Source of the DNA: an uncultured Gammaproteobacteria bacterium | GTDB lineage: Bacteria; Patescibacteriota; Microgenomatia; CAYSOG01 | NCBI GenBank assembly: GCA_964432675.1 | Contig: CAYSOG010000008.1 | Span: forward strand, 1-54,198 | Direction: 5' to 3' | Length of the DNA stretch: 54,198 nucleotides | Shown: positions 13,925 to 28,170 of the stretch, piece after piece | Layout of the letters: every line of letters starts with the position of its first letter | Numbering within the stretch: position 1 is the first letter of the stretch | The notes under the pieces: generated by a model | The model's database searches: none | What the model saw: the letters and a program-made list of their open reading frames with translations, nothing else | What the model was told of the DNA's origin: nothing | Position numbers and translations under genes: made by a program

Positions 13925-14150
13925 ATGTCACCTCCTTTCAAAAATCTCATCCATCTATTAGAAAGCACGAGTTTATTTTCTAGAAAGTTTCAAGCCCCGT
14001 GCCTTAAGAACTATTTTTACTATGCGCCAGCTGCGCTTAGCTTGTCAAATGGTCAAATCTAAATTCCAAATGTCATAGATTGATCTATATAAGCCATCTT
14101 GCAGAAAATAAATGAAGTTGGTAAAGTAAAACCGAGTTACTTAACAATTT

Positions 14151-14354
14151 GAACCTGGTGTAAGGGAAGTATGGTGATTTTGTCCATTGTTTGAACTAAG
14201 GGGCAAAAAATTCCATCACTGTGCCGCAACGGTAAAGTCCGATTACTTATGCTTATGGTTTATTCTCCCGAGCAGGAGCTGGTAGTTAAGATGTTGTCCA
14301 TTGTGACAGCCCACCATATCAGTTACTAACCTTCTCGGCAGAGGAGGTTTTTTC
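14151..14354 (+). ncRNA. cobalamin riboswitch (class II/AdoCbl-variant-like core) with expression platform
   Basis: AGGGAAG-TATGGTGA...AATTCCAT-CACTGTGCCGCAACGGTAAAGTCCG-ATTA; P3 GGTGTAAG/CTTATGCT; downstream hairpins, the last occluding GAGGAGG. Confidence 0.8.
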
Positions 14355-15590
14355 ATGGTTGAATCGGTTATCATTTCTTCGCCAGATACTGAATGTGGAA
14401 GTCAAGAACAAGTTAGGGCGTTTAATCCGCAATTTGACTATGATGCTGTGGTTGAAATCTTACCGCTTCGCACTAGCGACCCAATAAAATACCAGCAAGA
14501 ACTTGATCGTCGCCTTTCATGCACCGAAACAAATTGGCAGCGGTATCTTGCCGAACGTTATGGCCTTGCTGTCCACCGGTTCTCATATGATATTACGCCT
14601 AATGGTTTAGAGCACCAACAGCTTGGTAATATGCTGCAAGGTATGCAGCATGCAACCGAAGAAATGCGCCCGTCGCAACCAGCAGTTGTAGTTGCCCAAA
14701 ATGAGGCCTGGTGCAATAGTTTTGCCCAGGCGCAGGCTGCCTTGATAAATCCGGCTGCGCCCGACAATTTAGTAGTGGTTTTGCCTTCGCCCAAAGGGCC
14801 GGTTTACAAGGAAAACTTCTTCGACGTCCTTATTAAGCGGGGTAAAACTGTTGAAGCGACAAGGTTTCTTTCATCATTGCCAGTGGAAGTGATGGGCCAG
14901 CGCTGTAACGAATTAAGTGGCAAACTATTATTTCCACCAAATGCAGGTCACCTTGATCTTAAGCAAAGGGCTGTGATTTGTGATCCAGCAGAAGGGAATG
15001 AGCAGACTGAAGATACAATCAAACAAACATTAGGTGGTGGTGTTGCTCGCATCTCTGATGACCAATTTTATAATTATGTTATACCAACAGCAAATGACGA
15101 TATCCGTAACTACCTATTAGCCATGCGGAAAGTTCCACCAGTTGTGCGCGAACTACAAAGGCAATTTAATATTACAGTTGGTAAGGCCGATGATATCGCG
15201 TTTGGGACGCAACCGAGTTGGTTATCTAATACTTTTAAAACCGCAGAGACAATACCACTTTGGCAGATTGATGCCTATTACGCCAACAAATATGTCCGTG
15301 AGATCGCGAGTGCCTGTGGGTACGGCGGCGGCTTCGATTTGAACGATAGGGGTGGTGGATTTGGCTTCGCTGCACCTCGTATTTTTGACATCTTCGACCT
15401 TTACGCAGAGGATCAGCAAGCACCGGCGGAAAAAGACGAAGGTTTTGGTATTGATAACAAAGGCTCACGTAAAATTTATTGCTGCGAGTGTAAAAAAACC
15501 TATCAACGGCCACTTGATAAAACAATCCCCTTTTGCATTCTCACCCGTAACGGTAAAATCTGTGGTAATAAAAAAGGCATTGCTTGCTAA
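14355..15590 (+). CDS. hypothetical protein with C-terminal Cys cluster (putative Zn finger)
   Basis: 411-aa ORF, GAGGAGG SD; CCECKK...FC...ICG...C tail after a Gly-rich linker. Confidence 0.8.
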   Translation: MVESVIISSPDTECGSQEQVRAFNPQFDYDAVVEILPLRTSDPIKYQQELDRRLSCTETNWQRYLAERYGLAVHRFSYDITPNGLEHQQLGNMLQGMQHATEEMRPSQPAVVVAQNEAWCNSFAQAQAALINPAAPDNLVVVLPSPKGPVYKENFFDVLIKRGKTVEATRFLSSLPVEVMGQRCNELSGKLLFPPNAGHLDLKQRAVICDPAEGNEQTEDTIKQTLGGGVARISDDQFYNYVIPTANDDIRNYLLAMRKVPPVVRELQRQFNITVGKADDIAFGTQPSWLSNTFKTAETIPLWQIDAYYANKYVREIASACGYGGGFDLNDRGGGFGFAAPRIFDIFDLYAEDQQAPAEKDEGFGIDNKGSRKIYCCECKKTYQRPLDKTIPFCILTRNGKICGNKKGIAC

Positions 15591-15636
15591 ATTGTAATCC
15601 TCGACACGGTGTAGTGAACGGATGTATAAAGTAGTT

Positions 15637-16260
15637 ATGAAATATATTGATATTACTCTTCCTTTATCCAATGGCTTAGTGACATATCCTGGTAATGTGG
15701 TTTTTGAACGGCAACTATTAAAAACCATTGACAAGGATGATGCAGAACTGTCTAAACTTGTCATTGGAACACACGCTGGTACTCATGTTGATGCACCACG
15801 GCATTTTATCAAGGGTGGCAAGGGTATAGACCAAGTCGAGGTCCAAAAACTTATCGGTCCGTGTAAAGTTATTGACTGCACATACGTTGAGGAATTTTTA
15901 ACGGCGCGCGACTTTGAGGGTTCTAATATCAAAAAAGGAGATCGACTTCTTATTAAAACGAGAAATTCAGATTACATTACTGATGTAGAATTTGTTCCCA
16001 ACTTTGTTTCACTTTCACTTGAAGCAGCCCAGTTTCTGGCCAATAAAGAAATTAGCCTTGTTGGTATTGATTATTTAAGCATTGAAGCCAAGGGGTCACC
16101 TGGCCATCCGGTCCACAAAGCATTATTAAAACATGAAATTGTTGTTATTGAAGGACTTAATTTATCAGAAGTCGACCCTGGGGGCTATCAGCTTGTTTGC
16201 TTACCTCTTAAAATCCAAAATGGCGATGGTGCGCCTTGCCGCGTTTTATTGGGAATTTAG
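15637..16260 (+). CDS. cyclase family / kynurenine formamidase-like metallohydrolase
   Basis: HAGTHVDAPRH, GIDYLS, VH..LL, GDGAPCR. Confidence 0.92.
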   Translation: MKYIDITLPLSNGLVTYPGNVVFERQLLKTIDKDDAELSKLVIGTHAGTHVDAPRHFIKGGKGIDQVEVQKLIGPCKVIDCTYVEEFLTARDFEGSNIKKGDRLLIKTRNSDYITDVEFVPNFVSLSLEAAQFLANKEISLVGIDYLSIEAKGSPGHPVHKALLKHEIVVIEGLNLSEVDPGGYQLVCLPLKIQNGDGAPCRVLLGI

Positions 16261-27624: not shown

Positions 27625-28170
27625 ATGTCAAAGATGTATACCAGGGCAGGAGATAGGGGGTTCACTGCGTTGATTGGCGGAGAGCGTGTTAGTAAATCGA
27701 ACTTGCGTGTTTCCTGTTATGGGACATTAGACGAGCTTAATGCTGTAATCGGTGTCATACGGTCACAACGTAATTTAGATAAGGAAATTGATGATAATTT
27801 AGGGCAGATACAGCGGAACCTATTCGCTTTAGGGTCCATTCTGGCGAATCCTGGCAGTAAGCAAACAAACCGGGCTATCACATTTGATAGCCAAGCTGAA
27901 ATCGACCGTCTAGAAAAACTAATTGACACTCTTGATGCTACTCTTCCCGAGCTAACCCAATTTATTTTACCCGGCGGGACTAAGACCGCAAGTTTACTGC
28001 ATTTGGCAAGAACGGTCGCGCGCCGGGCAGAACGGCTACTGGTTGCGCTTTCCGAGTCCGAAACAGTCGACGAATTGCATATTGCCTACCTTAACCGCGT
28101 CTCGTCTGCACTTTTTGTTTTTGCCAGGCACACGAATTTCCACCATAATGTCCGCGAAGAGACCTGGTAG
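27625..28170 (+). CDS. pduO: PduO-type ATP:cob(I)alamin adenosyltransferase
   Basis: MYTRAGDRG, YGTLDELNA, FILPGG, ARTVARRAER, YLNRVS. Confidence 0.9.
   Translation: MSKMYTRAGDRGFTALIGGERVSKSNLRVSCYGTLDELNAVIGVIRSQRNLDKEIDDNLGQIQRNLFALGSILANPGSKQTNRAITFDSQAEIDRLEKLIDTLDATLPELTQFILPGGTKTASLLHLARTVARRAERLLVALSESETVDELHIAYLNRVSSALFVFARHTNFHHNVREETW

Follow-up and report, generated by a model that had tools for sequence, protein, structure and literature searches.

The intergenic region 13925-14354 of the 54,198-nt stretch of DNA analysed here (the window), which lies upstream of an ORF of 411 aa (P0001), raises the question of whether it carries a cobalamin riboswitch, as proposed from the sequence alone, and, if so, why standard models overlook it and what the controlled gene might do. 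At the gathering score, Rfam returned no match anywhere in the 54 kb window. Under relaxed thresholds, RF00174 aligned to positions 14121-14300 with 15.2 bits (cut-off 31.5, E 0.15), treating 31 nt of L4 as an insertion, and RF01689 reached 14.6 bits (cut-off 36.5, E 0.32) when the 3' half of the riboswitch was scored alone. Because these scores are unconvincing by themselves, relatives were examined. RF00174 matched at E ≤ 1 in 15 of 40 genomes of the same class (0.7-1.8 Mb each), 7 of them above the cut-off, and 12 of the 15 loci exceeded a clan cut-off when rescored against all families; judged by sequence and structure, these loci are bona fide cobalamin switches. The expectation that such a riboswitch would be notable in a reduced genome was thus not borne out, since it is common among the relatives.

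A covariance model (R1) was built from an alignment (A3) of 12 compact relatives, which were picked for short spacing between the core and P13 and did not include the window. On the 54 kb window, R1 produced a single match, at 14138-14281 (57.4 bits, E 8.6e-16), which covers the aptamer and P13 and handles the L4 insert as one insertion. The genome to which the window belongs (1.47 Mb in 72 contigs, 91% complete, the sole member of its family) contains one real R1 match and no second real copy. The invariant core columns of A3 and of A4, an alignment of insert-bearing loci described below, are all kept in the window, helices P1, P3, P4, P6 and P13 are all intact, and the four-way-junction core and helices P3-P6 of the cobalamin clan CL00101 are present; the score stays below the Rfam gathering threshold of the clan, which is an operational rather than a structural criterion. 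We attribute the failure of Rfam to detect the aptamer at 14150-14278 to the L4 insert. The folding energy of the whole leader is unremarkable (z-score -0.77), so that the support comes from the comparison with relatives and not from thermodynamics. Based on this comparison, positions 14150-14278 are best described as a compact class-II-type cobalamin aptamer followed by a P13 regulatory hairpin, and we predict with high confidence that 14150-14354 as a whole is a cobalamin-sensing OFF riboswitch of the cobalamin clan with a split L4 T-loop. The sequence-only reading held in its main points: all the elements it listed were found base for base where it had placed them (Table 1), including the compact class-II-like core and the helix inserted into the L4 T-loop, and standard models do miss the riboswitch. 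A terminator scan additionally reported a minus-strand 'terminator' at 14213-14232, which was discarded as an artefact of the reverse-complemented riboswitch core and the L4 A-run.

Table 1. Features of the riboswitch, its expression platform and the associated genes. Coordinates refer to the window unless a contig is named.
Feature	Coordinates	Strand	Basis or remark
P1 5' strand, UGAACC	14150-14155	+	Pairs with 14257-14262; MFE folds of 14145-14268 and 14121-14360
P3 5' strand, GGTGTAAG (RNA GGUGUAAG)	14157-14164	+	Pairs with 14246-14253; sequence, folds
J3/4, GGAAGU, conserved GGAA junction	14165-14170	+	Aligned by RF00174 and R1 to consensus GGGAA
P4 5' strand, AUGG	14171-14174	+	Pairs with CCAU 14213-14216; RF00174, R1; co-varies in A4
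L4 T-loop positions 1-3, UGA	14175-14177	+	Comparison with the 7-nt L4 UGNAANU of 59 loci
Inserted hairpin ('P4a')	14178-14208	+	RF00174, R1, fold, relatives
L4 T-loop positions 4-7, AAUU	14209-14212	+	L4 comparison across loci
Core, CTGTGCCGCAAC (RNA CUGUGCCGCAAC)	14219-14230	+	Invariant in A3 and A4; unique in the window
P6, CGG/CCG, with 6-nt L6 UAAAGU	14230-14241	+	RF01689 and R1 alignments
J6/3, AUUA	14242-14245	+	Sequence compared with relatives
P3 3' strand, CTTATGCT (RNA CUUAUGCU)	14246-14253	+	Sequence, folds
P1 3' strand	14257-14262	+	Folds
P13/L13, CUCC-CGAGCA-GGAG	14265-14278	+	Conserved in relatives; within model R1
Linker hairpin, GUUGUC-CAUUGU-GACAGC	14293-14310	+	Fold; holds the second TTGTCCATTGT copy
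Terminator-like hairpin, AACCTTCTC-GGCA-GAGGAGGTT (RNA AACCUUCUC-GGCA-GAGGAGGUU)	14328-14349	+	Terminator scan; -12.5 kcal/mol
P0001, 411 aa	14355-15590	+	C-terminal zinc-ribbon-like CxxC...C...C part and terminal Cys
Next gene, putative cyclase/arylformamidase-like	15622-16260	+	PF04199, 94.4 bits
PduO-type ATP:cob(I)alamin adenosyltransferase	27634-28131	+	PF01923, 193 bits; in the same window as the riboswitch
NrdJ, 931 aa	G000:C1:76136-78931 (locus L175:1135-3930)		TSCPD domain and C-terminal CPxC zinc-ribbon-like motif

With class II cobalamin riboswitches (RF01689 AdoCbl-II of clan CL00101; env8-type, Cbl-IIb), the element shares the four-way junction of P3-P6, a short P6, the conserved GGAA of J3/4, an L4 with a T-loop sequence, L6, and the core CUGUGCCGCAAC-GGUAAAGUCCGA, the first part of which contains P5 (UGU/GCA) and L5 (GCC). 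P6 carries no extension, and the same 6-nt L6 is found in a relative (L011). As in the class II riboswitches described in the accessible parts of PMC6158498 and PMC7367189, the P13 loop complements L5 and the Shine-Dalgarno (SD) sequence is under structural control. By contrast, L4 is split by a 31-nt hairpin, the RF01689 score of the 3' half falls far below the cut-off for that family, and the SD sequence resides on a separate terminator-like hairpin rather than on P13, which carries it in relatives L003, L004, L011 and L014. On the 5' side, P1 and P3 are set apart by a single nucleotide (U14156), so that a J1/3 loop, 7 nt long in the RF01689 consensus, is absent and no J1/3 T-loop can exist. 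The latter difference also sets the element apart from Cbl-IIa (env8, selective for HyCbl/MeCbl), in which, according to the accessible parts of PMC6158498 and PMC7367189, a J1/3 T-loop between P1 and P3 contacts J6/3. J6/3 itself departs from class II and reads AUUA in the window versus AAGA, GAA or AAUA in relatives, so that ligand contact or selectivity could differ. RF00174, the class I consensus, is the best Rfam match and spans the full length, with the core and the L4 flanks aligned; the window differs from it in its low score and in having neither a P2 arm nor a long P6 extension, and in the alignment the P13 hairpin is mistaken for the 3' half of P6 and P3.

The hairpin with the CGAGCA loop, 35 nt 3' of the aptamer, is complementary to L5: L13 (CG-A-GC) pairs with GCCG of L5 if a single A is bulged out. 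A hairpin of this type follows the aptamer in all 14 relatives compared, with the exact loop in 10 and near variants in 4, and P13-like hairpins were found in 92 loci overall. In both true switches in which L5 reads ACC (L013 and L167), the matching L13 position is occupied by U; four further L5 ACC matches were excluded as coding sequence. The L5-L13 kissing loop is described as common to all cobalamin classes and as the regulatory switch, and L6 as docking into L4, in the accessible parts of PMC7367189 and PMC6158498. The conservation, the co-variation with L5 and the published role of the L5-L13 interaction identify 14265-14278 as P13 and as the predicted kissing partner of L5.

The 3' arm of the hairpin at 14328-14349 is the SD sequence (GGAGG at 14343-14347) and is followed by TTTTC and then by the ATG at 14355, the U-run at 14348-14353 being the spacer to the start codon; the sequence-only reading had likewise placed the SD sequence within this stem and Ts after it. 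The combination of terminator and SD hairpin recurs in 42 of the 92 loci. At the junction of arm and loop, a recurrent CUCGG(G)(A) is the complement of the P13 5' half; a complement of at least 5 nt is present in 22 of the 42 terminator loci and lacking in the other 20, and the one in the window is only 5 nt long and was equalled by 17 of 200 shuffled queries. Two folds of the platform are nearly isoenergetic, one with P13 and the terminator (-28.1 kcal/mol) and the other with the P13 5' half paired into the terminator (-28.0 kcal/mol); the second of these folds also keeps the SD sequence paired, with UUCUC of P13. The folds and the complement support an antiterminator model with moderate confidence. 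In the mechanism that we propose, bound cobalamin would be held by the aptamer on one side and P13 on the other, through kissing of L5 (GCCG) with L13 (CG-A-GC, with the A bulged). With P13 locked in this way, the hairpin at 14328-14349 would form, acting as an intrinsic terminator and burying the SD sequence 7 nt before the ATG, and the gene would be turned off. When the ligand is absent, the P13 5' half (CCGAG) would be free to pair with CUCGG at 14334-14338, where arm and loop meet, and break the terminator.

In the window, L4 measures 38 nt rather than the usual 7 and consists of UGA, the 31-nt hairpin and AAUU, so that all seven T-loop letters are present, with 31 nt between positions 3 and 4. 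The insert forms an 8-bp stem, in which TTTTGTCC (RNA UUUUGUCC) at 14178-14185 pairs with GGGCAAAA at 14201-14208, closed by a 15-nt loop, and L4 in its entirety has a folding energy of -7.9 kcal/mol. In the 14 relatives with a readable core, L4 never departs from 7 nt. Nevertheless, an insert at this position of the T-loop is found repeatedly in the class and also in further lineages of Patescibacteria, and is therefore no peculiarity of the genome under study. When 401 genomes of the class were searched with a pattern for a lengthened L4, 70 gave matches. Reading of the rows left 17, from 16 genomes besides that of the window, as true insertions at the same site; the others were either ordinary switches preceded by a fortuitous GGAA or stretches of coding sequence. 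In a scan of one genome per species, at least 118 stretches had a lengthened L4, and, among the matches listed, about 30 public records were convincing after requiring flanks that pair as P4. Also among the matches listed, 20 of these carry labels of Patescibacteria lineages (Saccharibacteria, Woesebacteria, Kaiserbacteria, Doudnabacteria and others), 7 are labelled 'uncultured Gammaproteobacteria' or 'Pseudomonadales', and 3 have other labels or are unnamed. One public record labelled 'uncultured Gammaproteobacteria' (L142) is identical to L029, a contig of a genome in the class of the window; the gammaproteobacterial labels on several insert-bearing records are therefore probably wrong. Contigs from three DNA runs of one soil study contained no insert variant, only unrelated riboswitch cores from other organisms.

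Among 107 loci with a recognisable P4, a set that the search patterns enriched for inserts, L4 is 7 nt long in 59 and longer in 48, a few of the latter being mis-registered. The prevailing form of L4 in the insert-bearing loci is U-G-N, hairpin, A-A-W-U, which places the helix between T-loop positions 3 and 4, and their modal L4 length is 38-39 nt. In alignment A4, which comprises 16 examples chosen because their L4 measures 37-40 nt, RNAalifold recovered P4 and a two-part inserted helix. Pairing was possible in 84.9% of the A4 cells versus 65.0% in shuffles, none of 500 shuffles reaching the observed value, and the covariation score was 0.634 versus 0.235; double changes occurred at all 7 pairs of the insert helix, and slid controls reached at most 60.5%. 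On these pairing counts, each copy of the insert in A4 is a hairpin. The same counts are silent on a shared origin, since any hairpin pairs with itself and hairpins acquired separately would yield equal counts. Between two genomes of one genus (loci L038 and L039), a C-G pair of the insert stem is replaced by A-U, a compensatory change which argues that the hairpin is kept tight once present. Of 9 insert-bearing relatives scored against Rfam, 3 were above the cut-off, 3 below it and 3 without a match.

We propose that the insert most likely arose as a small hairpin insertion of a kind common in these genomes and that it would have been kept as a tight stem pointing away from the loop apex, an orientation in which the T-loop could still dock with L6. 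L4 would accordingly represent a permissive site into which small hairpins have been inserted, probably on more than one occasion, and in our reading selection then keeps these hairpins as compact stems. In the genome of one relative (G365), the L4 hairpin type is present seven times, 2 copies being in the leader and 5 elsewhere (none in the reversed control), a dispersal that fits a selfish origin. No hairpin motif of the G365 type was found in the genome of the window, and a blastn-short search of its 1.47 Mb (91% complete) with the 31-nt insert recovered no second copy, only chance-level matches of up to 15 nt; the insert was thus rejected as a dispersed repeat of its own genome.

Several repeats were observed around the insert. 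An exact 11-nt direct repeat, TTGTCCATTGT, occurs at 14180-14190, where it comprises part of the 5' arm of the insert and the start of its loop, and at 14294-14304, in the hairpin of the linker that follows P13; both copies are possible pairing partners of the 3' arm of the insert. A repeat of this length appeared in 12 of 2000 shuffles of the 261-nt region. TTTGAAC at 14148-14154, which includes most of the P1 5' strand, was seen by eye again in the insert loop at 14190-14196, so that the loop could compete for the P1 3' strand; the recurrence may be due to chance in AT-rich sequence. Several contigs of the same genome also carry a perfect hairpin with GCGCCACGTTCA in its 5' arm, present about eight times and unrelated to the L4 insert.

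The L4 hairpin might instead be an adaptive module, a 'P4a' arm that defines a subclass and stabilises L4-L6 docking or makes a new tertiary contact. The fixed site between T-loop positions 3 and 4, the narrow size distribution (mode 38-39 nt), the occurrence in compact and P6-extended aptamers alike, the basal 2-bp stem, internal loop and distal stem common to many copies, and the compensatory change within one genus all speak for such a role. However, the insert is patchy within families, four of which (f30, f36, f28 and f10) hold both forms, its sequence is not conserved between lineages, the copy in the window has no internal loop, the hairpin type is dispersed in the G365 genome, and 59 of the 107 loci do without an insert even in an insert-enriched set. 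We therefore consider an adaptive arm unlikely and favour a permissive site entered by small hairpins. Much less likely still is that the riboswitch has decayed, the insertion, J6/3 or both having abolished binding and left a leader that is simply a constitutive terminator or SD hairpin. The sub-threshold Rfam score and the AUUA of J6/3 would fit decay, as would the position of the genome, which is alone in its family, with no other member for comparison. These features are set against the retention of all invariant core columns of A3 and A4, the intact P1, P3, P4, P6 and P13, the dependence of the genome on B12, and the scores of the insert-bearing L044 (40.6 bits) and L038 (40.5 bits), both well above the Rfam cut-offs.

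A functional aptamer could nevertheless sense an unusual corrinoid or have an altered selectivity, through J6/3 and the missing J1/3, and this we regard as possible, if rather doubtful. The J1/3 T-loop of the consensus is indeed absent, and in the accessible parts of PMC7367189 J1/3 of Cbl-IIa is described as adjoining the hydroxocobalamin pocket, with Cbl-I and Cbl-IIb taking adenosylcobalamin, the form that, to judge from PduO and NrdJ, the cell makes and uses. The sequence rules are, however, too unreliable for selectivity to be called. As to the kissing partner of L5, two candidates had been put forward in the sequence-only reading, and only the CGAGCA hairpin stood. The other, the hairpin at 14328-14349, could pair its CGGCA with UGCCG in a perfect 5-nt complement without any bulge, but its loop has only 4 nt, so that five pairs could form only by drawing on the closing base pair, and the equivalent loops of relatives are mutually unrelated (AAUUC, GGAUC, GUUUG and others), whereas both conservation and co-variation with L5 are seen for the CGAGCA hairpin. 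We thus rejected the 14328-14349 hairpin as the kissing partner, a role that seems extremely improbable for it, and retain it as the predicted terminator and SD hairpin.

The only ribonucleotide reductase found in the genome is the class II, B12-dependent NrdJ (NF006417, 980.9 bits, cut-off 961); NrdD and the B12-binding domain PF02310 were not found in the 91%-complete assembly. NrdJ scored above the cut-off in 30 of 41 genomes, and in 10 relatives (G004, G009, G010, G024, G026, G027, G028, G030, G032 and G034) nrdJ is followed on the same strand by the switch, at a distance of 0.8-2.2 kb. Members of the P0001 family are often located directly downstream of nrdJ, and one follows the switch in 21 of 37 loci of the class; the control by the switch and the position next to nrdJ tie the family to B12 and NrdJ. 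In five genomes (G001, G025, G027, G030 and G034), NrdJ matches fall into two blocks within single frames of 1155-1309 aa, which suggests a large insertion in the reductase, possibly an intein.

P0001 itself matched no family in Pfam or NCBIfam, and a word-based search for homologues retrieved only the protein itself. A profile from an alignment (A1) of 10 riboswitch-linked relatives matched at least 847 cluster representatives (50% identity) at E ≤ 0.001 and 514 at E ≤ 1e-10. Across 146 aligned members, C321, C376, C379, C394 and C403 are invariant and the last residue, C411, nearly so. The AlphaFold model is confident (pLDDT 85.7, pTM 0.74). Foldseek found no match to it in the PDB at E ≤ 0.001; a wide VIA-align comparison gave a best Z of 5.7, with a PAS/GAF-like similarity at residues 72-180 (Z ~5) too weak to name a fold, and the ESM Atlas contained nothing usable (best score 0.78). 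Comparison of the family with the NrdJ of the same genome by hhalign aligned only a 14-column CPxC stretch, at a probability of 8%. P0001 thus belongs to a large unnamed family; the protein is predicted to be part of the B12 economy of the cell. The downstream gene at 15622-16260, which may be co-transcribed with P0001, reached 149.5 bits against TIGR03035, below the cut-off of 223.

In the other 16 of the 37 loci, the switch is followed by a second group of proteins (8 loci), a related pair (L003 and L031), the product of L041 and a weakly similar one of L016, or unassigned genes (L006, L012, L028 and L042). The second group (L019, L021-L024, L026, L027 and L029, all from one family) replaces the P0001 family after the B12 switch; its proteins are mutually related, longer than 417 aa, open at the locus ends, and without a Pfam family. 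The switches of L041 and L016 are of the RF01482 type, and the protein of L041 (411-962) is a membrane-anchored DUF4430 protein (PF14478, 56.6 bits); DUF4430 is a cobalamin-linked domain.

In the literature searched, we found no description of an insertion in L4, of a split T-loop or of the P0001 protein family, older subscription papers and the Rfam seed alignments being outside the search. A 2003 paper on the B12 element is said to mention 'facultative stem-loops'. Searches for cobalamin riboswitches in Patescibacteria likewise returned nothing, and those for the candidate phyla radiation together with cobalamin riboswitches returned only work on TPP switches. The word 'insertion' is absent from the accessible part of PMC6158498, retrieved with T-loop and cobalamin riboswitch, and neither of two papers retrieved for Saccharibacteria and riboswitches (PMC10409787, PMC11665869) concerns natural cobalamin switches.

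Taken together, we tentatively suggest that Patescibacteria possess a viable 'split T-loop' form of the cobalamin switch whose main target is the P0001 family, with a B12-related function that is yet to be described. The first part of this suggestion would make the split T-loop a distinct form that current covariance models largely miss; under the second, the family might serve, for example, in the capture or processing of cobalamin or in a bypass for DNA precursors when B12 is scarce. A helix that is tolerated, or even exploited, between positions 3 and 4 of a T-loop would be a natural experiment on the robustness of this common tertiary motif within a ligand-sensing core. As the Rfam thresholds miss the window and 6 of 9 insert-bearing relatives, B12 regulons of Patescibacteria are likely under-called, and the missed switches would be recovered by a model in which a hairpin in L4 is optional. 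Unable to make B12, the hosts nonetheless rely on a ribonucleotide reductase that requires it, and the gene family controlled by the switch would be the most direct lead to how they acquire, process or economise on this cofactor.
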